This document shows, piece after piece, positions 24,328 to 63,705 of a stretch of 64,000 nt of DNA. Under the pieces are notes generated by a model. That model made no database searches, was not told the DNA's origin, and worked only from the letters and a program-made list of their open reading frames with translations. Position numbers and translations under genes: made by a program. Position 1 is the first letter of the stretch. Each line of letters opens with the position of its first letter. The DNA comes from an uncultured Collinsella sp. (GTDB lineage Bacteria > Actinomycetota > Coriobacteriia > Coriobacteriales > Coriobacteriaceae). The DNA lies in assembly GCA_902388345.1 (NCBI GenBank), contig CABMOY010000001.1, forward strand, positions 9,357 through 73,356. The letters run 5' to 3'.

Positions 24328-24360
24328 CTTGCGCTCTCTCCGCCATACAACGCGTTAAGA

Positions 24361-24412
24361 AAAGACGAGCGCTTCTTGCCAATTGGGCGGCAAGAAGTGC
24401 TCGTCTTTTGCA
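24361..24412 (+). terminator. Rho-independent terminator closing the man-PTS/GH172/ROK operon
   Basis: aaaagacgagcgcttcttgcc...ggcaagaagtgctcgtctttt hairpin followed by ttttgcattttc. Confidence 0.65.
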
Positions 24413-27793: not shown

Positions 27794-28138
27794 TGGTCGG
27801 GGACGTTCTTTAACGACTAGTCATTTAAGAACGATCCCAATGACTATGCTGCTTGCCTTCGTTATCTGACGACCTGGACGGCAAGTGCGCTCAACTGGAT
27901 AAGAAAAAGCCGGGGAAAACGTCCCTGGCACTTGGAAGCCTTGCTTGCGGAAAACCAATTATTTTTAAATCATGGGCTGTGCGAAAAGGCAAGTACATGA
28001 AACGATCGCTCCAATGGCGAAGTCCCAGCCTGCGCGCCAGCCCATAGGCAAGCCACCTGAGACCACTCACTTTGCTCACCGCTGACGAAGACTTGCGACC
28101 TGGGGTTTGCGAGCTGCTCGCAGAACCCAGGTCGCATA

Positions 28139-28699
28139 TCAAGCTTTAGACTGACTCAGCCAATCACTTCTCGTCAGGCAAGTGATCTGTTCTGTACGGA
28201 TGTCGTCCATCAGCTCACAGCAGACGTCCTTACGGGTGTGGTGCCAAATAAAGCCGCATTTTTCCTGAACGCGTTTCGATTTCTCGTTCCCGTCGAAGTA
28301 TCCGCACCAGATTTTGTCCAGTTTCAAGTCCTCGAAACCATGGCGGACGAGCTCTCGAACCGCCTCCGGTATCAGCCCCTTGCCCCAGAACGGGACGCCG
28401 ATCCAGTAGCCTATTTCTCCCTCAGTGTCCGGAATCTCCTTGTCGGACCGCGCGCCAATCATCAACCCTATGCTTCCGATGGCCCTGTTGTCTTCCTTCA
28501 GGCAAACGGCGTACGTCTCCGGCGCGGAAAACACGGTGCGGATGATTTCGGCGCTGTCGTCAACGCTCGAGTGAGGCGGCCAGCCGGCAATCGGCCCCAC
28601 CCTGTCGTCCTTCGCGTATCTGTACAGGTCCTCTGCGTCCGTTTCGGCCCATGGGCGCAGTATCAGCCGCCCGGTTGCCAGTTGTATATCCATCTCCAT
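28139..28699 (-). CDS. GNAT-family N-acetyltransferase (RimJ/RimL-like)
   Basis: Acetyl-CoA binding region GYWIGVPFWGKGLIPEAVRELVRHGF. Confidence 0.8.
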   Translation of the reverse strand: MEMDIQLATGRLILRPWAETDAEDLYRYAKDDRVGPIAGWPPHSSVDDSAEIIRTVFSAPETYAVCLKEDNRAIGSIGLMIGARSDKEIPDTEGEIGYWIGVPFWGKGLIPEAVRELVRHGFEDLKLDKIWCGYFDGNEKSKRVQEKCGFIWHHTRKDVCCELMDDIRTEQITCLTRSDWLSQSKA

Positions 28700-28895
28700 C
28701 GACTACTTTCGATTGATGCTCAGTGCCCATTGTATTCGCTACGATTAAACTCGGCACAGGGGATACTGGTTTTCCGTGCGAAAACGCTCATGCCGCTAAA
28801 TTGAGCGACCGCCTGTACTGCAGCGGGATCATCCGCCCGAGCGATCCCTTAATCCGTCGCCCGTTGCGCCAATCGGCAGAAGCCACGCGTGGACG

Positions 28896-29838
28896 CTAAT
28901 CGCTCGAGCGAATCGTCGTCGGTTTCCGTTTAAGATTTCTTTTTCCGCTATTATCCGACCCTCGGACTTCCTCGTGATAGAAGTAGTCCACGATCACCGG
29001 ATGCCCCTGGGGGACTCTGCCATAAGGCATTTCGTTGTCCACAAAGGGGCAATCGTACTTCTTGGCCATTTCCTCGGCTTTTACTTCAAGCGCTTCAAAA
29101 TAGCTACGGTTGCGCTTGTTATAGATCTCATCGTAAAGCGGTACGAGATCGGGATGTTTCTTGGCGATATAATCCAGGATCGCTTTTTTGAAACCACCCC
29201 GAAGATTGAGATTTTCGAGCCAAAACAAATCGCACCGATCCTTTACTCGCTCAAAAATCATCTCAAAATCCGTGATGCCGGGAAATACCGGGGACACGAA
29301 GCAGACCGTACGGATACCTTCGTCATACACCTGCTTCATAGCAGCGATACGACGCTCGATGCTCGACGCGGAGTCCATATCGTTCTTGAAGTTCTCATCC
29401 AGCGTGTTGATCGACCATGAAACGGTCACTCGTCCAAGCTTCTTCAGCAGATCGATATCCCGTACCACAAGATCGGACTTTGTGCAGATCAGAATATCTG
29501 CATCGCTGCCAATCAGCTGCTCCAGGAGTTTCCTGGTATTCCCGAATCGCTCCTCCTGTGGATTGTAGCCATCCGTCACAGAACCGATAACCACCCGCTG
29601 TCCAGCGTATTTCTTCGGATTCTTGATTTCCGGCCAATGCTTCACATCAAGAAAGGTGCCCCATTCCTCCTTGTGTCCGGTAAAGCGCTTCATAAAGGAG
29701 GCATAGCAATACTTGCAGGCATGCGTGCAGCCTACATAGGGATTGACCGAGTAGCCGCCCACCGGCAGGCTGGACTTGGTCATGATGTTCTTTGCTTCCA
29801 CCTCATTGATGAGGATTCCATCGATCACTTCCGCCATG
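28896..29838 (-). CDS. Radical-SAM protein of the spore-photoproduct-lyase/SplB-like (COG1533) family
   Basis: CTHACKYCYA (Cx3Cx2C) cluster motif near the N-terminus. Start taken at MAEVIDG (about 29838). It overlaps the upstream gene by 14 nt. Confidence 0.8.
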
Positions 29839-30514
29839 TTCTCTGCACCTCCAGCACTCTTTCGAATTCTTCCGGCAATTCCTGAATCATGTTTTCGTCC
29901 CCTATGACAGAGACGAGGTCTTCCTTCATAAACATTGGAATGCCAAGCGCGTGCGCCTGGTCCGTCAAAGACCATGCCCACTCCGGTTCCGTATGAACCT
30001 TCCTGCTCTGCGCCCCGGTCATGGTACCGACGACGATCCAGTTGATTCCGGAAAGGTCGACCGTACCGGGATCGTCGAATAGCGGCTCAAAAGTAACGAA
30101 GAAGTGATTTGCTTTGACGTTTTTCCGAAGGGCGTCGATACGCCACAGCTCCGCTTTCCTCGTCACCGTAACGCCGAACCATGCGTTTTCCAGGTCGGTA
30201 TCTAAATCCAGCAAATCGGGTCTCTTGGTCAGGAACAGGAACTGATGCTGTGGATTCTCATGGATCTTTGCAAATACCTCGTCTCGCCATTCCAGCTTCC
30301 ACCCGGAGAGATCGCTCATGCCGGTAAGGAGAAAGTTCTGCGGGCGTTTCTTTTCCATCATCTTGAGCTTGCTCGGGAAGAACGCAGGATCAGCGAAGTC
30401 GTCAATCATATGCCAACGTTTCACATTGTTACGGGCATAGCAATATGGACACCCCACCGTGCAGCCGATGACGATATTCATATTCTGAATCTGATTTTTG
30501 ATGCAGATGCTCAT
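29825..30514 (-). CDS. Phage Gp37/Gp68-like (DUF5131) radical-SAM-type protein
   Basis: IGCTVGCPYCYA Cx3Cx2C motif. Family recognised from the overall pattern. Its ATG overlaps the stop of the upstream sirtuin fragment (ATGA at 30511-30514). Confidence 0.6.
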   Translation of the reverse strand: MSICIKNQIQNMNIVIGCTVGCPYCYARNNVKRWHMIDDFADPAFFPSKLKMMEKKRPQNFLLTGMSDLSGWKLEWRDEVFAKIHENPQHQFLFLTKRPDLLDLDTDLENAWFGVTVTRKAELWRIDALRKNVKANHFFVTFEPLFDDPGTVDLSGINWIVVGTMTGAQSRKVHTEPEWAWSLTDQAHALGIPMFMKEDLVSVIGDENMIQELPEEFERVLEVQRTWRK

Positions 30515-30711
30515 AACGCCTGCCTACCTGCCTCTCCCGTAAACACGCAATCAGCCTCCCCCACCTTGCGGGCAAAAGCCTCGATATCTTGCTTGCAAGC
30601 AGCAGGCTCGCAATCGCTCAAATCGTATGACGTGCCGCCGTTTCGATAGACGGCCCGATGGGAAAACGATCGGCTGACAAGCCCGATGCCGAGCTTCTCG
30701 CACAGGGTCAT
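30511..30711 (-). pseudogene. 5' fragment (66 codons) of a sirtuin-like gene, paralogous to the N-terminus of the 33037..34008 gene
   Basis: MTLCEKLGIGLVSRSFSHRAVYRNGGTSYDLSD... aligns with MTLYEQLVIELTNQSFSLQAAYRSGGTPYELSD.... The similarity ends at about codon 57, and a stop follows. Confidence 0.6.
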
Positions 30712-30854
30712 CCGTGCTCCCTTTCAGCTATAAAAAACAGGTGTCTATAAACAGTATCCTTGTTGATTTTCGCAGGGGCAATGAACAAACGCGTGCACCT
30801 GTCGATAAACGAACAGCTACTGGACATTGTCAAACGACTCAGATTGGAGAGGCG

Positions 30855-31415
30855 ATGGGAGAAACCAAGATCGACCGCCGGCTGCGCTACACCCTCTCGG
30901 TCATACAGGAGGCGTTCTTCGCGCTGCTGGCCAAGGTCGGCTTCGCGAAGATGACGGTGGCGGACATCTGCCGCCGCGCCGAGATCAACCGGGGAACGTT
31001 CTATCTGCATTACGAGGATAAGTACGCGCTGCTCGATGCGCTTATCGACGAGGCATTGGCAGCGGCTCCCCCGCTTGAGGGGGTTGAATCGGCAACGCTT
31101 TGCCAGTGTCCGCCGGCAGACGACGATTATCGCCTGCTTTATTCGGACGGCGACGCATACGCTCGCGTAGCCCAGCGCGTCATAGAACGCGGAGCGGAGC
31201 AGATGGTTCCCTGGGTCATGGAGAAAACAGGGCTTTCACGCGAAGACGCCTTCCTGCTCTTCGTCCACAACGTCCAGGGCAATCTGGTCGTCAACCGCCT
31301 GCTCGGCTGGAGACGAGGCCCCGAGTTCGCCCATGCCCAGGAGCTGCTCAACGCCTATTCCGAAGGGGGCTTACTGGCGGTATCCGCTCTTCGCGATTCC
31401 GATAACCCATCGTGA
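30855..31415 (+). CDS. TetR/AcrR-family transcriptional regulator (copy 1)
   Basis: HTH region GFAKMTVADICRRAEINRGTFYLHYEDK. ATG at 30855 with a GGAGAGG RBS. The sequence upstream of that ATG within ORF 30714.. is intergenic. Confidence 0.8.
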   Translation: MGETKIDRRLRYTLSVIQEAFFALLAKVGFAKMTVADICRRAEINRGTFYLHYEDKYALLDALIDEALAAAPPLEGVESATLCQCPPADDDYRLLYSDGDAYARVAQRVIERGAEQMVPWVMEKTGLSREDAFLLFVHNVQGNLVVNRLLGWRRGPEFAHAQELLNAYSEGGLLAVSALRDSDNPS

Positions 31416-31498
31416 CCTGCGATTCAGGAATACCAGCCTCCGAGCCCTCTCGTTCGGAGGCTGTGGCTAAAACCTCATTGCGCGTCTACCGCTCCGCG

Positions 31499-32347
31499 CT
31501 ACTCGTCGCCTGCCTGCGCCGCCGAGAGCAGTGCGCTCAAATCGGCCTGGATCGCCTCCGCCTTGCTCCCGAGTTGCAGCGGAGCCGAGTCGCCCGAGAT
31601 GTTTACGCTCAGCAGGTGCGCATCCGGCAGCTTCGCGGTCATGCTCCAGAACGGGAGCGTGATGATGCCGGGGGTCATCTCGCCCACGCCGAGCTCCAGC
31701 AACAGCACGTGGCTACTACCGCGCTCGCGCACGAAGCGCTCGTATCGTCCGAGGCCCTCGCGCCAAGCCACGCCCTGCAGAAACGTGTCGTCGCGCACCC
31801 ACGGTACGAGCTGCCAGCCGCAGTGCGGGCATCGGGGGACATCCTCGCTGCGGATCTCGAACCCCGCCATGCCCGCGAGCATGCGCTCGACGTAGGGGCT
31901 CGCCTCGAAGAGCTCGTCGCAGCATGGCTGCTTGCACTGAAGGTGCGCGAAGCTTCCCTGATAGTTGCAGATTCTCTCGGCGGGAAACGTCTTCTCGACC
32001 TGGGTGTCCACATTGGTGCTCAGGGTGAAGTAGTCCTTATGGCCGATGAGGGACTGCAGGTCGAGATAGAGCTGTGAGGCAGGCTCGCGCAGCATGAAGT
32101 CGATGTATCGCGCGTAGTAGGCCCATTGCTGCTCGAGGCTGGGGTAGAGGTAGTAGAAGCCGTCGAAAAGGCTCTTGAAGCCAAAGGCTTGCTGCCAGTC
32201 CGTCATTCCGGCGCGCGCCATGCCTGCGCGGTTGTAATGGTTGAACCCGGCGGCGCTTGACATGCCCGAGCCGATGCCGACGATGATGGCGTCGGCATCG
32301 TCGATAAGGCTTCGAAGCCTATACGCTTCCCTCTCTAGAGACGGCAT
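31499..32347 (-). CDS. Sirtuin-like (SIR2-family) protein, paralog a
   Basis: IVGIGSGMSSAAG NAD-pocket Gly-rich motif. TLSTNVDTQ (TQNxD-like). Zn ribbon CKQPCC...CPHCG. Confidence 0.6.
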   Translation of the reverse strand: MPSLEREAYRLRSLIDDADAIIVGIGSGMSSAAGFNHYNRAGMARAGMTDWQQAFGFKSLFDGFYYLYPSLEQQWAYYARYIDFMLREPASQLYLDLQSLIGHKDYFTLSTNVDTQVEKTFPAERICNYQGSFAHLQCKQPCCDELFEASPYVERMLAGMAGFEIRSEDVPRCPHCGWQLVPWVRDDTFLQGVAWREGLGRYERFVRERGSSHVLLLELGVGEMTPGIITLPFWSMTAKLPDAHLLSVNISGDSAPLQLGSKAEAIQADLSALLSAAQAGDE

Positions 32348-56236: not shown

Positions 56237-57928
56237 ATGAAGGTGGTTATCGTTGGAGGCGTCGCGGGCGGCGCATCGGCGGCGGCACGTTTGCGCAGAC
56301 TCGACGAGCAGGCCCAAATTGTCATCTTTGAGCGCACGGGTTTTGTATCGTATGCCAACTGTGGGCTTCCGTACTACATTGGCGGCGTGATAGAAGAAGA
56401 GAGCGCATTGACGCTGCAGTCTCCCAAGGGCTTTTGGGATCGCTTTCGCATTGCGGTCAAGACGAGTCACGAGGTGTTTGCCATCCATCCCGATTCGCAT
56501 ACGGTCGAGGTTCGCAATATGCTGACGGGCGAGGAATTTGTCGAGACGTATGACAAGCTCATCCTGTCGCCGGGTGCAAAGCCGATTCGCCCTGCGTTGC
56601 CGGGCATCGACTCGGATAAAATCTTTAGCCTACGCACCGTTGAGGACACGCTGCGTATTCACAGCTATGTTCGAGAGCGGCGACCGAGCAGTGCCGTCGT
56701 GATCGGCGGCGGCTTCATTGGCGTCGAGACGGCGGAGAATCTGTGCGAGCTGGGGCTCCAGGTGACCCTTCTGCAGCGTCCCGTCCAGCTTATGAACAAC
56801 CTGGATTACGACATGGCGACCCTTTTGCATACCGAGGTGCGTGAGCACGGTATCGATCTGCGCCTCAAGGCCGATGTGACAGGTTTTGAGGAAGTTGATG
56901 GCCGCGTTGTCACCCATGTTGCGGGCGATGACCCTATCGGAGCCGATATGGTGCTGCTTGCCATTGGCGTGGCACCTGAGAGCCATCTGGCGCAAGAGGC
57001 GGGGCTCGAACTGGGCATCAAGGGGGCTATTGTGGTCAACGACCGCATGGAGACCTCTGCTGCCGACGTGTATGCCGTGGGCGATGCCGTGCAGGTCACG
57101 CATCAGGTGACCGGCGAGGACGCGGTCATTTCGCTCGCCGGCCCCGCCAACAAGCAGGAGCGTGTCGTCGCCGATGTCATAGCCGGCATGGACAGCTGCT
57201 ACCTCGGATCGTTGGGCTCATCGGTTATCAAGGTATTCGACTTGACGGCGGCAAGCACGGGACTATCCGAAAAGGCGGCACACGCGGCGGGAGTTGACTG
57301 CGACAGCGTGGTCCTGTCGCCCGGTTCGCATGCGGGTTATTATCCGGGTGCAACGCCCATGACCATGAAGGTTGTCTTCGAGAAGCAGGGATTGCGCCTG
57401 CTGGGTGCGCAAATCGTGGGCATCGATGGTGTGGACAAGCGTATCGACGTTCTGGCGACTGCCATCCAGGCAGGCATGCGCGGCGATAGGCTTAAGGATT
57501 TGGACCTAGCATACGCGCCGCCGTATTCATCGGCGAAGGATCCCGTCAATATGGCGGGCTTTATGATCGAGAACCTCAATCGCGGCATACTGGCGCAGTG
57601 GCATTGGGAGGATGAGCCCAACTTGCCACGCGATGGCAGCGTGCAGCTGCTCGATGTTCGTACGGAAGGGGAGTATGAGCGCGGGCATATCGATGGTTTC
57701 GTAAACATTCCCGTCGATGATCTGCGCAATCGCCTGGGCGAGCTCGACCGGGCCAAGCCGGTCTACGTGATTTGCCAGAGCGGCATTCGCAGCTACATTG
57801 CTTGCCGCATTTTGGCGCAGCATGGCTTTGAGTGCTTTAACTTCTCGGGCGGCTATCGCTTCTTTGCAGCCGTGACTGAGGCTCGCCGCGGCAGCGCTAA
57901 CGTTATGCCGTGCGGGTTCGAAAAGTAG
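56237..57928 (+). CDS. CoA-disulfide reductase / NADH oxidase-family flavoprotein with a C-terminal rhodanese domain (CoADR-RHD)
   Basis: VVIVGGVAGGASAA FAD motif. Redox-active SYANCGLPYY Cys. Second Rossmann motif. C-terminal rhodanese with CQSGIRS. Confidence 0.85.
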   Translation: MKVVIVGGVAGGASAAARLRRLDEQAQIVIFERTGFVSYANCGLPYYIGGVIEEESALTLQSPKGFWDRFRIAVKTSHEVFAIHPDSHTVEVRNMLTGEEFVETYDKLILSPGAKPIRPALPGIDSDKIFSLRTVEDTLRIHSYVRERRPSSAVVIGGGFIGVETAENLCELGLQVTLLQRPVQLMNNLDYDMATLLHTEVREHGIDLRLKADVTGFEEVDGRVVTHVAGDDPIGADMVLLAIGVAPESHLAQEAGLELGIKGAIVVNDRMETSAADVYAVGDAVQVTHQVTGEDAVISLAGPANKQERVVADVIAGMDSCYLGSLGSSVIKVFDLTAASTGLSEKAAHAAGVDCDSVVLSPGSHAGYYPGATPMTMKVVFEKQGLRLLGAQIVGIDGVDKRIDVLATAIQAGMRGDRLKDLDLAYAPPYSSAKDPVNMAGFMIENLNRGILAQWHWEDEPNLPRDGSVQLLDVRTEGEYERGHIDGFVNIPVDDLRNRLGELDRAKPVYVICQSGIRSYIACRILAQHGFECFNFSGGYRFFAAVTEARRGSANVMPCGFEK

Positions 57929-57938
57929 CGCGCATTGG

Positions 57939-57970
57939 AATGTGACAAAGTGACAGCCTCTTTGTCGCAT
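57939..57970. repeat. Palindromic repeat copy 1 (AATGTGACAAAGTGACAGCCTCTTTGTCGCAT, degenerate)
   Basis: Direct reading of the sequence. Member of the TGTGACAAAGGGAC/GTCCCTTTGTCACA family. Confidence 0.7.
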
Positions 57971-58149
57971 CGGGGATGTTATATGCGGGATGGTGCGCCA
58001 TGCGGCGTGCTGTCCCGTTCGTTTTTTGGCGCGGTTCGTTACATTCCTCACTGGTATCGGCCAAAAATGAGGATAGAGTAGGACAAACGCGCCGAACGTG
58101 AACGGCGGGGGAGCGGGCGAGCGCGCCCGCGCGAGAGAGGTTGCCGTCC

Positions 58150-61100
58150 ATGCTGGATCTCAGAGTTATTTGCAAAAGGTACGTTACGCAGTCGTTTACG
58201 CAGGTAGCGCTCGACAGCGTAAGCCTGTCTTTTCGCGATAACGAGTTCGTAGCCGTTCTGGGTCCCTCGGGTTCGGGTAAAACTACGATGCTCAACGTCA
58301 TCGGTGGACTCGACCATTTCGATTCGGGCGATCTGCTGATCGACGGCATCTCGACCAAGGACTTCAACGACCGCGATTGGGATGCCTATCGCAATAATCG
58401 CATCGGCTTTGTGTTCCAGAGCTATAACCTCATTCCGCATCAGAGCATTTTGGAAAACGTGGAGTTGGCGCTTACGCTCACGGGCGTGGGGCATGCCGAG
58501 CGCCGCCAACGTGCGCGCAAGGCGCTCGAGGCAGTCGGTCTGGGCGAGCACGTTGACAAGCGCCCGAGCCAGCTTTCGGGCGGGCAGATGCAGCGCGTGG
58601 CCATTGCCCGCGCCCTGATCAATGACCCCGAGATTGTGCTGGCTGACGAGCCGACCGGCGCCTTGGACTCAACGACATCCGTACAGGTCATGGATTTGCT
58701 CAAGGATGTTGCGCGCGATCGTTTGGTCATCATGGTCACGCACAATCCCGAGTTGGCATACAGGTACGCCACGCGCATCGTCACCCTGGCGGACGGCAAG
58801 ATCACCGACGATTCCGACCCCTTTGATGCTGCCGAGGCCGCGCGTCGCGAGGCCAAGCCCACGCGCAAAACCTCGATGAGCTTTGTGACAGCGCTGGGGC
58901 TTTCGGCGCGAAACCTTTTGACCAAGAAGGGCCGTACGGCTATGACGGCCTTTGCTGGTTCGATCGGCATTATCGGCATTGCGGCGATTCTGGCGCTCTC
59001 CAACGGCGTAAACGGCTACATCAAAAAGGTCGAGGAGGATACGCTCTCGAGCTACCCGCTCACCATTTCCAAACAAGATTATGACCTGTCGTCCATGATG
59101 GGCGGGCATGGAGCTACGGATGAGGAGGCGTCCGAGGACAAGGACGCGTCCGACGGCGCCACCGGCGGCAAGGCTCAGGGGACCGATAAGATCCCTGTGG
59201 TCACGGCCGTAAAGGATATGTTCGCAAGCGTTAAGTCCAACGACATGACGAGCTTTAAGGCATGGCTCGATGCCGGTGGCGACGGCATCGATAAAGAGGT
59301 CAACGCCATTCAGTACGGCTACGGTGTATCGCCGGTTGTCTATCGTGCCGGCAAGGGCGATGAGAAGCCTGTCCGGCTGGTGCCCAACGCTATGACTGAG
59401 GCCATGAGCGGAGGTGCGAGCTCGGCGGCAACGGTGAGCATGGAATCCATGGGAACGTCGGTCTTCAACGAGATGATTGACGACCAGAGCCTGCTCGACA
59501 GCCAGTACGATGTTGTTGCCGGCCATTGGCCTACGTCAGCCAACGAGGCCGTGATGGTGCTTTCGAGCCGCGGAACGGTGGGCGACTACACGCTCTACAG
59601 CATCGGTGCGCTGGATATCGATGAACTCAACGACCTGGTTAACAGCGCCATGACGGCCGACGGCAAGGTCGAGGCGCCCAAGACCGGCGCCGACTTTACC
59701 TACGACGATGCACTGTCCACGACGTTTAAGGTGCTGTCGCCGGCAGATGCCTATCGCAAAAACGAAGAGACCGGCATGTGGACTGACATGGCTGGCGATG
59801 CCGACTATATGGCGGCCAAGGTTGCCGACGGTATTGACGTGCGCATTGTGGGCGTGGTGCGACCCAACGAGACGGCCAACGCGAGCGCATTATCCCCGGG
59901 CATTGCCTATACGCATGCGCTGACTCGCCAGCTTATGCAGCGTGCTGCCGATTCGCAGATTGTGCAGGAACAGCTTACCCACCCCGAGACGGATGTCTTT
60001 ACGGGTAAAACCTTCGACGAGCTGCAGGGCGAGGCCAAGCAAGGCGTGGATCTGAGCAGCATGTTCAGTGTGGACGAGGCGGCGCTGAAGAGCGCGTTCT
60101 CTCTCGATTCGTCTGCGCTCTCGGGCGCGGCCGGCGGTATGGACCTTTCTGGTATCGACTTGTCCGGGCTGGACATTGACCTTTCGGGCGTTGGGAAGGA
60201 CATCGACTTCAGCGACATCATGGCCAAAGCGCCGGCTCCAGATTTCTCGGGCATTTTTGACGGTTTGGAGCTCACACCCGAGCAAATGCAGCAGGTGGGA
60301 ACGCTTGTCAACCAGCTGTTTGAGGGCTTTATGCAGTCGGATCAGTTTAAGGTGCTGTCGCCCGAAGATCTTAAGGACGCGTCAAAGCTTGCTGCCGCAT
60401 TCTCAGCGTACCTTGAGAATGATGCCGCCGCCCAGCAATGCTTGGCTCAGCTTAAGGCGCTCGGCGGCGATGCCTTGGCCGAGCGTCTGCAGCAGGTGAT
60501 GGGCGACTATGTGCAAAAGCAGCTGGCTCCGTATTTGCAGCAGTCTATGGATCAGGTGATGAAGGCGGTCAGCGAGCAGATTGCGACGACGGTATCAACC
60601 CAGCTCAAGGCGGGTGCGGCAGGGCTCATGGGCCAAATGGCGACGCAGATGTCTTCGAGTTTTGCCAACCTGGCGAGCGCCATGCGCGTGGATGCGGGCG
60701 CCTTTGCTCGTGCCATCCACTTCAACATGGACGCCGAGGACCTGAGCTCGCTCATGATGAGCTATGCCAAGGCGTCGAAGCTCACCTACGACAACAATCT
60801 GACCACGTTGGGCTATGCGGACGAGGCGGACCCCATTTCGGTCAAGATTTTCCCGCGCGACTTTGAGGCCAAGGAGCGCGTGCTCGATTACATCGATGCG
60901 TACAACAAGCAGGTCAAAGCTGCTGGCCACGATGAGCAGGCAATCTCGTATACCGACTACATGGGCATCATCATGGGCTCGGTGACCGACATCGTGAATA
61001 CTATCAGCTTGGTGCTCATCGCATTCGTGAGTATCAGTTTGGTGGTGAGCTCCATCATGATCGGCATCATCACCTACATCAGCGTGCTGGAGCGCAAAAA

Positions 61101-61404
61101 GGAGATTGGCATCCTGCGCGCGATCGGCGCGTCAAAGCGCAACGTGGCCAACGTATTCAATGCCGAGACCTTTATCGAAGGCCTCATCGCTGGCGTCTTT
61201 GCTATTGTCGTCGTGGTGGCCGTGAGCTTTCCGGTTAATGCCTGGGCGCTTGCGGCCAAGCAGGTGCCCAACCTGATGAGCCTGCCCGTTCAAGACGCGC
61301 TGATGCTCATTGTAATTTCGGTGCTGCTGACGGTCGTTGCCGGCCTGCTGCCGGCTCGCAGCGCATCCAAGAAAGACCCTGTGGAAGCCCTACGCTCCGA
61401 ATAA
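58150..61404 (+). CDS. Fused ABC transporter ATP-binding domain plus FtsX-like permease (MacB-like)
   Basis: Walker [25 protein letters not shown] signature. Walker [13 protein letters not shown] long extracytoplasmic region. C-terminal FtsX 4-TM domain. Confidence 0.85.
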
Positions 61405-61435
61405 TGTGACAAAGGGACAGTCCCTTTGTCACATT
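61403..61435. repeat. Palindromic repeat copy 2 (AATGTGACAAAGGGACAGTCCCTTTGTCACATT), overlapping the ABC gene stop codon
   Basis: Perfect 16-bp arms around a central A. Confidence 0.8.
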
Positions 61436-61441
61436 GGGTGG

Positions 61442-62575
61442 CTAGCTCGTTTTGCCCATCAACGTGATACGGATGCTTGGATGGGTGTACTCGTCAAATT
61501 CATCCTCGGGATCCGTGTCAAACGAATAGTACGTTTTGATGGGGTTGCCACTCGTCCTGATGGAGATTCTCTCGTAGAGCGAACCGTTCAAAAAAGCCTG
61601 CCTAAACTCTTCGGGGAGCTTTTGCGGTGCTAGGAGCTCGGGACTCACGGTCTTGACGTCTACGGTTTGGACGACAGAGGAAAGTTCGTCCAAGTCGAGC
61701 TCGATGCGGGCGAGGTTGTCCTCAAGGCTCGCGTCGGGGTCGATCTCTGCTATGTAACTCACTTCCTTGAGCGTTCCCTTGTTGTCGAAATCCAGGTACG
61801 TATAGGTCTTCTGGGTATCGGAGTCGCCGTCGTGAAGGTAGCCGCGGACGTGATAGCCGTAATCTTGATATCGCTCGTAAGGGTCATCGGCGGATACGTA
61901 CTCGCATGCGGGCTCTAGCGTCTTGCGGGCGATGGCGATCTGCTCGGCCGCGGCCGCGGCGTTCTGTTGCATCTCGATGTTTCCCTGCGCCAGCTGCGGG
62001 ATATAGGCACCGCACACGATTGCGAGGGGCAGTGCCACAAGCGCGACGATCCACTTTTTTGCACGGGGGATAGGCACGCCACAGGCCTCTGCCATGGCCT
62101 TTGCGTTGGCAAAGCTTTCGGCAAGCACGTCTGCCGCGGTGGCGACGGCGCCTACGGCAGCGGCGACTTCTGCCGCACCGCCCAGGTTGCGTGCGGTCTC
62201 ATTGTCGCTGTTCTTGAGCAGACGCGCGGCGGCCTGCGTGCCAACAACGCCTGCAATTTGTGCCGAGCGGTCTTTTTCGCTCTGCTCGACGGCGAGCCGG
62301 TGCTGCATTTCCCTCCACTGCTTGCCGCGCATGCCAAAGCGCGGCGCGAGCGCGCAATAGCAGAAGATGATGAGCTCGACGGCGGTGAGCGCCAAGGCGG
62401 TCATCATGCCCGTCTCCTGGAAGCTTTCATGATGGAAGACGATATCGTCAGTCATTTCGAAGGGAATGATCAAAAAAGGCAGCACAAACGCCATGGCAAG
62501 CGCCGCGCCGGCAACCTTGGGACAGATGCAGTATCGCTGGATGCGCTTGCGTTCTTGTTCGGAAAGTGTAGCCAT
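61442..62575 (-). CDS. Hypothetical membrane protein
   Basis: Start at MATLSEQERK. Two hydrophobic regions. Acidic C-terminal half. No recognised domain. Confidence 0.5.
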   Translation of the reverse strand: MATLSEQERKRIQRYCICPKVAGAALAMAFVLPFLIIPFEMTDDIVFHHESFQETGMMTALALTAVELIIFCYCALAPRFGMRGKQWREMQHRLAVEQSEKDRSAQIAGVVGTQAAARLLKNSDNETARNLGGAAEVAAAVGAVATAADVLAESFANAKAMAEACGVPIPRAKKWIVALVALPLAIVCGAYIPQLAQGNIEMQQNAAAAAEQIAIARKTLEPACEYVSADDPYERYQDYGYHVRGYLHDGDSDTQKTYTYLDFDNKGTLKEVSYIAEIDPDASLEDNLARIELDLDELSSVVQTVDVKTVSPELLAPQKLPEEFRQAFLNGSLYERISIRTSGNPIKTYYSFDTDPEDEFDEYTHPSIRITLMGKTS

Positions 62576-62638
62576 AGCTGCTCCTTGGTGTCGTGGCGGT
62601 CGTTGCGGCGCATGGGGTGCGGGGCGCATCAGTTTGAG

Positions 62639-63184
62639 CTAGCGCTGGATAAGAACATAGAGCAAGATGCTCATCGCGATGAGCAAGAAGCCCGCGATGT
62701 TAAACATCAGTGTGGCAAAGTTGCCCACGATGGGGCGTTCGACATAGCTTTTGTCTGGGTTGCTGGGGTTGTAGTACACGGTCATTTGGCTACCGAGGGG
62801 CCAAAGCTGCTCCGCGAGGGTGCCTAGGCGGGCGATGGGGCCTGTCTGCACGTGCAGCCAGCCCTTGGCGTCTTCGTAGGCGGTGGCTTGCGTGCGGATG
62901 GGGAGTCCCGACAAGCTTTTGGTCTTTATGCCACGGAATTGTTTTTTCGCGCGGTATTGCGTGCCGTCGACGGTGTATTCCAAAACGGGATTCATTCTGC
63001 CTTCACCCATAAAGCGATGGTCGATGACCGTCCCCATGGTCACGGCGGTACAGGCCTTGGCTTTCTTGCGGGCGGCGGCCTTCATGAGCATGCTCGCTCC
63101 GATAAACAGGATGCCGATGCCTCCAACCGAGATGAGCGCGAGCAGAGATATCTGCGAGGTGGTCACGGCGTTCTCCTTTGGCAC
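62639..63184 (-). CDS. DUF3592-like membrane protein
   Basis: N-terminal TM. Central beta-rich DUF3592-like block (VLEYTVDGTQYRAKKQF). C-terminal TM. Confidence 0.55.
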   Translation of the reverse strand: MPKENAVTTSQISLLALISVGGIGILFIGASMLMKAAARKKAKACTAVTMGTVIDHRFMGEGRMNPVLEYTVDGTQYRAKKQFRGIKTKSLSGLPIRTQATAYEDAKGWLHVQTGPIARLGTLAEQLWPLGSQMTVYYNPSNPDKSYVERPIVGNFATLMFNIAGFLLIAMSILLYVLIQR

Positions 63185-63246
63185 GATACCGTCATATGTG
63201 ACCCAGTATAGAGAATCCCGCCATCGATGAGCTATTGCGGGGGGGG

Positions 63247-63279
63247 GTCAATTCTGAATGTGACAAATGGACTGTTCCT
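63247..63279. repeat. Palindromic repeat copy 3 (AATGTGACAAATGGACTGTTCCTTTGTCACATC)
   Basis: Direct reading. Arms conserved, centre diverged. Confidence 0.75.
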
Positions 63280-63303
63280 TTGTCACATCGGGGACTGCGG
63301 AAT

Positions 63304-63487
63304 CGAGGTCTAATACTTTTCCCGAGAAGTGAACGAGTGAAAACGGACTCCCGAAGCATCGACACTTTTGGCGTGCAATTTCCTGCGGTTTTGCCAGTCA
63401 AATCCTGCGGTTTTGACGCCTAAAAATGTCAATGCTTCGGGGGTCCAAATACAGCCGTTCACTTCTCGGGAAAAGTATTAGACCTCG
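63304..63487. repeat. 184-bp nested inverted-repeat element (perfect 32-bp terminal inverted repeats). MITE-like or a structured RNA
   Basis: Left arm CGAGGTCTAATACTTTTCCCGAGAAGTGAACG at 63304-63335 equals the reverse complement of 63456-63487. Inner imperfect inverted repeat at 63346-63363 and 63428-63445. Tandem TCCTGCGGTTTTG at 63381 and 63403. Confidence 0.75.
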
Positions 63488-63542
63488 AAATATGGGCGGC
63501 GTTCGCGAACGGCAACTAGCTTGCGTCCGGTAGCCGGCACTT

Positions 63543-63569
63543 GGGGCAAAGGGACTGCCCTTTTGCCCC
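63543..63569. repeat. Variant palindrome GGGGCAAAGGGACTGCCCTTTTGCCCC, related to the repeat family
   Basis: Shares the CAAAGGGAC.GTCCCTTTTG core. Confidence 0.6.
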
Positions 63570-63653
63570 TTCACCATTGCATCGTATCTGGTGTGGAAAA
63601 AATATCGCCTGCGTTCTCGCGCCTGCGAAGAGTTCCTGAACCGCTTGAATGGG

Positions 63654-63685
63654 ATGTGACAAAGGGACAGTCCCTTTGTCACATT
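63654..63685. repeat. Palindromic repeat copy 4 (ATGTGACAAAGGGACAGTCCCTTTGTCACATT), about 20 bp upstream of dus
   Basis: Identical core to copy 2. Confidence 0.8.
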
Positions 63686-63705
63686 GATTTGAGAATGGAT
63701 GTTGA

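Follow-up and report, generated by a model that had tools for sequence, protein, structure and literature searches.

A hairpin-forming palindrome family of Collinsella and related Coriobacteriales, probably the cognate repeat of a RAYT-like gene

Background

Among repetitive extragenic palindromes (REPs) that are paired with an enzyme, the closest described systems are the REPs and bacterial interspersed mosaic elements of Escherichia coli with the protein RayT (TnpA_REP, YafM; 4ER8), and the REP doublets forming hairpins (REPINs) of Pseudomonas with their REP-associated tyrosine transposases (RAYTs). This study concerns a family of 33-nt palindromes located in a 64,000-nt stretch of DNA from an uncultured Collinsella sp., referred to below as the window; window positions are those of the whole stretch. 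These palindromes very probably represent a REP family of the order Coriobacteriales and the cognate repeat of one RAYT-like gene of the Y1/HUH type, the two together forming a REP-RAYT system.

As in E. coli, the Coriobacteriales repeats are short, hairpin-forming extragenic palindromes found at gene ends and between the genes of operons, and the associated gene, itself flanked by the repeats, encodes a class-2 protein of the Y1/HUH type that carries the HUH and Y---NP motifs and is predicted to fold like RayT. Both partners also differ from their enterobacterial counterparts. The Coriobacteriales element has no 5' GTAG guide and is a perfect 16+1+16 palindrome, whereas enterobacterial REPs are imperfect; its copies number tens rather than hundreds, its host is an actinobacterium, and the protein is longer by a C-terminal domain of about 110 aa that finishes in a helix-turn-helix (HTH)-like stretch.

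The REPIN-RAYT systems of Pseudomonas (Bertels & Rainey; PMC3116915, PMC5581495) share with the present one a transposase-like gene in a conserved position and repeats that persist across related genera; their gene is single-copy and apparently inherited vertically, as that of the present system may also be. Unlike them, the Coriobacteriales unit is a single symmetric hairpin, and doublets of fixed spacing were not seen. In the classical RAYT groups the flanking 16-mers reach 57 and 140 copies per replicon, and in other groups 12-31 (PMC5581495); the Coriobacteriales hairpin count lies within this reported range of 12-140 per replicon.

A resemblance to the HTH-bearing TnpA_REP subclass 2.1, or TIRYT (PMC6006769), lies in the overall layout of the protein, a long class-2 Y1 enzyme extended at its C-terminus by an HTH-like part. 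The consensus of the repeats flanking that subclass, GGGG[AT][CG]A[CG] (PMC6006769), resembles the GGGACAG of the Coriobacteriales apex, but the subclass was reported to have terminal inverted repeats and no REP-like hairpins near the gene, whereas the Coriobacteriales flanks are dispersed hairpins. The TnpA transposases of IS200/IS605, with their subterminal hairpins, have the same fold and chemistry and recognise DNA hairpins at the ends of their elements, as is predicted for the Coriobacteriales protein. Unlike theirs, its gene is apparently not multicopy and sits in conserved synteny, and palindromes identical to those flanking it also stand alone at many loci.

Like the present repeat, the dRS3/NIME mosaics of Neisseria, the pdif modules of Acinetobacter and the attC sites of integrons are short symmetric repeats that border strain-variable genes and are targets for other mobile DNA. 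The enzymes that work on those repeats are tyrosine or IS110-type recombinases with defined target sites. For the Coriobacteriales repeat no such enzyme or oriented site is evident, although no recombinase search was made. To our knowledge, work on REP-RAYT systems has been confined almost entirely to Proteobacteria. In one survey, the Actinobacteridae of the sample carry only IS200-type Y1 genes (PMC6006769), and a literature search on the motif and on REPs in Coriobacteriia found no description of this repeat.

Results

Palindromes of the window

Five members of the family lie in the window, of which two are essentially perfect, two are decayed and one is a variant (Table 1). A search with the 33-mer, allowing up to three mismatches, matched the copies starting at 61403 (no mismatch), 63653 (one) and 63257 (three), and gave matches in 0 of 100 shuffles. 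The 14-nt half-site matched 14 times against 3.9 +/- 2.2 expected, with pairs at 57941/57956, 61405/61420, 63259/63274 and 63655/63670 and an unpaired half-site at 63542. Moreover, a covariance model built on 67 copies from elsewhere recovered all five sites, with E values from 2e-16 to 9e-4. The palindrome family is thereby confirmed as real and far beyond chance. No convincing copy was found in the first 57 kb of the window; the cluster is local.

An earlier note on this DNA had described five such palindromes near 58-64 kb, and the covariance model bears out that count. Its position for 61403-61435 holds, while the third copy lies at 63257-63289 rather than 63247-63279, the first extends to 57971 and the fourth starts at 63653. 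The note was also right to place one copy over the stop codon of the ABC transporter gene (ABC, ATP-binding cassette), where the overlap is 2 nt, and others upstream of the DUF3592 gene and dus (the 63257 and 63653 copies). Its picture of perfect 16-bp arms throughout needs amending, as only 61403-61435 is a perfect 16+1+16 palindrome, and the (C/T)GGGG flank that it took to be conserved has no consensus across 67 distinct copies, nor does any other column outside the 33 nt.

Folded as RNA, the 61403 copy reaches -26 kcal/mol (z -7.2). It fills the 37-nt gap between the convergent ABC-FtsX and 395-aa genes, the former ending in a TAA at 61402-61404 and the latter at 61442. The 63653 copy (-23.4 kcal/mol, z -6.0) is situated 13-19 nt upstream of the dus start and has orthologues at seven of the collected loci (L013, L020, L027, L035, L050, L073, L076). 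Both decayed copies carry non-compensatory changes, and their RNA folds are reduced to -17 to -19 kcal/mol. The first of them lies 10 nt past the stop of the 563-aa oxidoreductase gene, within its 3' untranslated region (UTR) and upstream of a canonical terminator, so that at this spot the palindrome is not the terminator; the same decayed sequence is present in the orthologous loci L036, L087 and L106. The second precedes the start of the DUF3592 gene by 72 nt and is separated by 13 nt from the left end of a 186-nt MITE (a miniature transposable element with inverted repeats), with orthologues in L013, L020, L035 and L087. The variant at 63543 (-20.2 kcal/mol) keeps the family apex on a different, compensated lower stem with one G.U pair on the + strand.

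Constraint on the hairpin

With 33 nt and arms of 15-16 bp, the element falls within the description of a REP as a short (20-40 nt) palindrome capable of forming a hairpin. Across copies the apex AAGGGACnGTCCCTT is nearly invariant, reading AAGGGAC-n-GTCCCTT, and the centre base can be any nucleotide, while the outer arm is AATGT/ACATT or one of several lineage variants. Among the 67 distinct copies, pairing keeps to 83-100% as far as position 15, counted from the centre, falls to 46% at position 16 and is at background beyond; 95.5% of cells pair, as against 38-51% in slid controls. Double changes occur in 8 of the 16 pairs (48 cells), a level reached by 0 of 500 shuffles, and position 12 alone shows UA 42 times, AU 15, CG 5 and GC 4. 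Changes in the lower stem are thus compensated on both arms, which points to selection for the hairpin. Since the covariation of the outer stem constrains pairing and not base identity, it speaks against a dimeric protein that binds the duplex. A comparison of sense-strand G.U with A.C, made to look for a possible RNA-level constraint, gave a weak excess (16 vs 9). Copies form local clusters and occasional tandem pairs (L065, L083, L248, L257 and window 63257-63685), with no doublet of fixed spacing.

A RAYT-like gene flanked by the palindromes

A tblastn search of 2.1 Mb of collected DNA with E. coli RayT (100% identical to the annotated rayT) returned a single match, weak (E 0.026) but spanning the full length; it is located at L033:7142-7879, immediately next to a copy of the palindrome. 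The same query gave no Collinsella match in PLSDB, a search judged too insensitive because the query had reached only E 0.026 in the small local database. The L033 gene encodes a protein of 245 aa which matches Pfam Y1_Tnp (3e-12; 47 bits against a cut-off of 23) and, as its best NCBIfam model, the REP-associated tyrosine transposase NF047646 (REP_Tyr_transpos). The HUH (NHVHLL vs EHMHCI), QxRF and Y---NP (YIHNNP vs YIYINP) motifs align with those of E. coli RayT, Y---NP being the class-2 Y1 signature (PMC6006769). The protein is only 20% identical to RayT. An extra C-terminal region of about 110 residues ends in an HTH-like motif, and Pfam found no significant domain in the C-terminal 118 aa.

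The AlphaFold2 (AF2) model of P0003 has a predicted local distance difference test (pLDDT) score of 88, and its best match in the PDB is 4ER8_A (E 8e-8, template modelling (TM) score 0.75 normalised to target), which is E. coli RayT bound to a REP hairpin and which outranks the IS200/IS605 transposases at ranks 2-29. On the strength of this model, the L033-family protein is predicted to have a RayT-like fold. At E <= 1e-10 there are 1636 homologues, named ones among them coming from Paratractidigestivibacter, Candidatus Olsenella pullistercoris and Parolsenella.

The stop codon of the L033 gene overlaps a copy, and a second copy with the same rare outer arm starts about 100 nt upstream, where it is cut by the locus edge. 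All seven further contexts, at 51-93% identity to the L033 protein and from at least three genera, have family hairpins on both sides, 61-126 nt upstream of the gene and at -7 to +2 nt from its stop. One of them (L256) carries the exact window consensus on both sides; more generally, the lower stems of these hairpins are lineage-specific (AAGTTGAC, AACCTGCA, GATGATAC, AATAAGAC, AATGAGAC) around an apex that does not change. Five of the seven contexts have A as the centre base of the upstream hairpin and T as that of the downstream one, which indicates an inverted orientation, and in two of these five a second, tandem downstream copy has centre A. The gene is immediately upstream of nadE in seven of the eight contexts, across two families, and in six it lies between an amino-acid ABC-transporter ATPase gene and nadE. 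It is present once in the 2.1 Mb of collected DNA. Many of the homologue contigs are only 0.9-1.3 kb long, as expected if assemblies break at the flanking repeats.

The 900-kb record of C. aerofaciens was considered as a source of the cognate gene and set aside, as it holds only a paralogue without flanking hairpins. This second Y1 'transposase' (L254 2986-3798; NZ_OY725717.1 220955-221767) is 38% identical to the REP-flanked protein and is flanked by nifU-like and suf genes; no palindrome adjoins it.

Distribution and copy number

Species-representative genomes were scanned with the 23-nt core GACAAAGGGACnGTCCCTTTGTC, which was found in at least 120 genome stretches. Among the matches listed, the stretches belong nearly all to Collinsella, Olsenella, Tractidigestivibacter, Paratractidigestivibacter and unnamed Atopobiaceae or Coriobacteriaceae, and many are orthologous, such that 161 sites reduce to 49 distinct loci. 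On the C. aerofaciens 900-kb replicon, BLAST places the palindrome at eight positions. The covariance model identified one copy in 200 kb of DNA not chosen for the motif, and, in a 50-kb piece surrounding the best match, three copies that all fall inside 800 bp. Furthermore, Collinsella metagenome DNA totalling 925 kb, retrieved through an unrelated repeat (the MITE), contained 19 copies at places away from that repeat. The density is roughly one copy per 50-110 kb, corresponding to tens per genome in a clustered arrangement.

Two stretches binned as Acutalibacteraceae (L003) and Sodaliphilus (L077) have flanks identical to Collinsella loci and are probably mis-binned Collinsella DNA, that is, bin contamination. 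In the Firmicute Dethiothermospora halolimnae (L009 3287-3319), a perfect 33-nt palindrome with the same 23-nt core and outer arms CCTGG/CCAGG stands alone between divergent TetR and NADH:flavin oxidoreductase genes; about 0.07 chance matches are expected across the whole core scan by our own estimate, and this palindrome could be an operator, the result of transfer or a chance match. A common TetR operator was dismissed, the TetR proteins of Dethiothermospora and C. aerofaciens being unrelated and not orthologous. In C. aerofaciens itself, three family hairpins within 800 bp of non-coding DNA (L121 22650-23560; 662.6-663.6 kb) surround a 41-codon open reading frame (ORF) annotated as hypothetical, whose small, hydrophobic, arginine-tailed product looks, from its sequence, like a type I toxin.

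Position relative to genes

As far as a crude in-house codon-usage ORF caller can place the genes, 43 of the 49 distinct loci are extragenic, and 26 have a stop codon at a distance of -7 to +15 nt, compared with 12.6% of random intergenic positions. Fourteen overlap the stop, either as TAAtgt (offset -2) or, in the Atopobiaceae variant, as aTGA (offset -5). Flanking genes are convergent at 11 loci, tandem at 21 and divergent at 6. Several copies between tandem genes are only 4-22 nt ahead of the next start codon. A promoter would not fit there, and the element must therefore be part of an operon transcript.

A T-rich tail (at least 5 T in 8 nt) follows the element at 12 of the 49 loci, against 4.5% in controls, and is missing at the other 37; none of the window copies was called as a terminator, defined as a G+C-rich hairpin followed directly by a U-tract. 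Canonical terminators are present in the same genome, namely the one downstream of the 57939 copy and a second hairpin at window 24360-24409 that is flanked by an A-run and, on its opposite side, by a T-run, which makes the missing T-run after most copies meaningful. The neighbouring genes are diverse (AAA_14/DUF4143, AAA_16, M24 peptidase, LysR, aldo-keto reductase, flavodoxin, TetR, oxidoreductase), and unrelated neighbours together with few T-tails speak against a regulon as well as against a simple family of terminators.

Gene content between copies

The element often coincides exactly with a break in synteny. In 13 flank families the flank is joined to between two and five different partners, with the switch falling exactly at the palindrome, while a single partner is retained in most flank families (31 of those with at least three members). 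Lone genes are bracketed by copies at L018, L103 and L117.

Other Collinsella species lack the window segment made up of the 395-aa and DUF3592 genes, or have different genes in its place. The ABC-dus interval, which separates the ABC-FtsX gene from dus (window 61404-63700), is a hotspot of gene content among species of the genus, ranging from 59 nt with one copy up to 6 kb. It consists of one copy and no gene in L057, L081 and L086 and of copy, gene and copy in L050; the window arrangement recurs in L013, L020, L035 and L087; and in L061, L076, L077 and L115 the copies enclose 3-6 kb of LysR, aldo-keto-reductase, flavodoxin or other genes. Some intervals carry TetR and agmatine-pathway-like genes, and the palindromes bound every version. 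No empty sites were found among the orthologous loci, every one of which had been chosen for carrying the motif.

Table 1. Palindrome copies and other features of the window
Feature	Position	Strand	Remarks
Pyridine-nucleotide-disulphide oxidoreductase gene with rhodanese domain	56237-57928	+	563 aa
Decayed palindrome copy	57939-57971		Covariance model 37 bits, E 1e-8
Canonical intrinsic-terminator-like hairpin and T-run	57985-58028	+	Directly downstream of the decayed 57939 copy
ABC ATPase-FtsX permease fusion gene	58141-61404	+	Stop codon overlaps a palindrome copy
Perfect palindrome copy	61403-61435		AATGTGACAAAGGGAC A GTCCCTTTGTCACATT; covariance model 60.9 bits, E 2e-16
Variable segment (395-aa gene and DUF3592 gene)	61442-63184	-	Bounded by palindrome copies
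Gene without Pfam match	61442-62629	-	395 aa
DUF3592 gene	62639-63184	-	
Decayed palindrome copy	63257-63289		Centre T; covariance model 38.9 bits
MITE-like element IR186	63303-63488		186 nt; 67-nt arms, 87% complementary; terminal repeats AAATCGAGGTCTAATACTTTTCC...
Shorter variant hairpin	63543-63569		GGGGCAAAGGGACTGCCCTTTTGCCCC; covariance model 21.9 bits, E 9e-4
Near-perfect palindrome copy	63653-63685		15 perfect pairs, centre A; covariance model 60.3 bits
dus	start near 63699-63705		

Discussion

The palindromes are a dispersed genome family, and an operator of a small regulon is not supported. Of the interpretations put forward in the earlier note, the REP-like one gains support from the RAYT-like gene flanked by the same hairpins. 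That note had taken hundreds of copies irrespective of gene function as the mark of a generic REP element; the copies are tens per genome, and the genes beside them are indeed unrelated. In a REP-RAYT system of this kind, each copy can form a hairpin of 15-16 bp, whether as single-stranded DNA or as RNA, in which the apex sequence is fixed and the lower stem need only pair. The putative cognate gene is flanked by such hairpins in Collinsella, Paratractidigestivibacter, Olsenella and related uncultured lineages, usually just upstream of nadE. By analogy with E. coli RayT and its REPs, the enzyme may bind hairpins folded in single-stranded DNA and carry out cutting and rejoining next to them, and this activity may seed or maintain the copies. 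They would be tolerated mainly at gene ends, with many supplying or overlapping the stop codon. Once transcribed, they would become 3'-UTR or intercistronic hairpins that might affect mRNA ends or translation termination, possibly by protecting transcript ends or by attenuation. Finally, identical short repeats may act as break-and-join points for the differences in gene content between species, through recombination between copies, and the five window copies would be such elements, clustered around the variable segment between the ABC-transporter gene and dus.

Several observations weigh against this interpretation. The RAYT-like gene is not in the window, hence the link is by family and not by locus. 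The L033 protein scores 62.3 bits on NF047646, below the equivalog cut-off of 80, and carries the C-terminal HTH-like extension; in the HTH-bearing subclass 2.1, no REP was found near the gene (PMC6006769). The repeat lacks the 5' GTAG guide tetranucleotide, its copies are not arranged as REPIN doublets, and they number tens per genome whereas classical REP families have hundreds. Neither an empty site nor a recent insertion was found, so that mobility is something we infer, and the gene positions at the listed loci come from the crude ORF caller described above.

An operator of a dimeric regulator, with a small regulon comprising the ABC transporter, DUF3592 and dus, had also been proposed in the earlier note and is very unlikely. 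The perfect palindrome would suit such a regulator, some copies are upstream of dus, DUF3592 and a TetR-like gene of C. aerofaciens, the identical 23-nt core occurs in the divergent TetR/old-yellow-enzyme promoter region of Dethiothermospora, and the HTH-like tail of the RAYT-like protein could bind duplex copies. The genes next to the palindromes are, however, functionally unrelated; convergent loci outnumber divergent ones, 11 to only 6, and 26 of the 49 distinct loci, more than half, adjoin stop codons (crude gene calls); and the outer stem covaries with all four Watson-Crick pairs, unlike what protein contacts predict. The same bias towards 3' ends would suit transcript-end hairpins, whether terminators or 3'-end stabilisers, kept only for an RNA function and without an origin driven by a transposase. 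The hairpin is strong, the 61403 element is the sole sequence between two convergent genes, T-rich tails exceed the controls, and the ordinary intergenic hairpins of C. aerofaciens likewise cluster at stop codons. Nevertheless, hairpin function leaves unexplained why one identical sequence of 23-33 nt recurs at dozens of loci in two bacterial families. The 37 loci without a T-run, the canonical terminator placed after the 57939 copy, the copies 4-22 nt before the next start inside apparent operons and the weak sense-strand G.U excess all argue in the same direction, and the two-sided flanking of the RayT-like gene in 7/7 fully readable contexts is not expected of terminators. An exclusively RNA-based explanation is therefore improbable, and an RNA role is likely as a secondary, exapted function.

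The variation of gene content raises the question of a recombination site, similar to attC or pdif, at which gene cassettes are exchanged by the Y1 enzyme or by another recombinase. The ABC-dus interval, which ranges from a copy alone to 3-6 kb between copies, the 13 flank families that change partner exactly at the element and the single bracketed genes are what such a site would produce. The same pattern would nonetheless arise by homologous or slipped recombination between identical 33-bp repeats, or by repeats settling at the edges of gene units. Moreover, no cassette was seen at two different loci, most flank families keep a single partner, and no circular form, integrase or oriented site is evident, no recombinase search having been made; this explanation appears distinctly improbable. 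A bolder version, in which hairpin and Y1 enzyme form a chromosomal cassette-exchange system that inserts, loses and swaps the bracketed genes by hairpin-by-hairpin joining on single-stranded DNA, is speculative and rather unlikely; if true, gut Actinobacteria would possess in this repeat a portable site of the attC type, and the HTH-bearing RAYT-like protein would be a domesticated recombinase serving to vary gene content. The proposal that the palindromes are the ends of a miniature inverted-repeat element, the last of those in the earlier note, has a negligible probability. One window copy and several elsewhere do lie 11-13 nt from the 186-nt MITE, but this element ends in terminal repeats of its own, a palindrome is absent from 29-31 of its 35 flank families (among the matches listed), and most palindromes stand alone with no MITE nearby.

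A REP-RAYT system in Coriobacteriales would provide a clear pair of repeat and enzyme in Actinobacteria that abound in the human gut (Collinsella, Olsenella and their relatives). With its constant apex and freely covarying stem, the hairpin is of unusual simplicity and would offer a compact system for testing recognition by RAYT-like enzymes. The REP family would also explain assembly breaks and synteny breakpoints in Collinsella genomes, and it serves as a warning that such palindromes are not to be read as regulatory sites.

Additional observations

The MITE-like element IR186 is not a member of the palindrome family, but is inserted 13 nt from its 63257 copy. It folds into a long, near-perfect hairpin at -121 kcal/mol (z -13.8) and has no Rfam match. 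An initial impression that IR186 always lies beside a palindrome arose because the loci had been chosen by palindrome (ascertainment bias), and was ruled out by a scan with the MITE's own ends. This metagenome scan by the terminal repeat returned at least 120 loci, all MITE-sized and forming 35 flank families, with no full-length parent element seen; among the matches listed, 4-6 of the 35 families have a palindrome at 11-13 nt. A preference of IR186 for palindrome-adjacent sites remains. The element is common in human-gut Collinsella contigs, where about 18 distinct sites were recorded among the matches listed, about a third of them 11-13 nt from a palindrome.

Rfam and tRNA scans found nothing, and phage and viral searches gave 0 phage records and 1 viral contig. 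The cumulative GC skew of the window has a minimum near 30-32 kb and then rises (the feature was noted at about 28000-32000), which could mark a replication origin or a switch of strand bias. Lastly, the PLSDB record NZ_OY725717.1 (900 kb, C. aerofaciens TSDC17.2-1.1 'plasmid 6') carries recA, ftsK and ribosomal-protein genes as well as aminoacyl-tRNA-synthetase and cell-wall genes, and looks like a chromosome segment filed as a plasmid.

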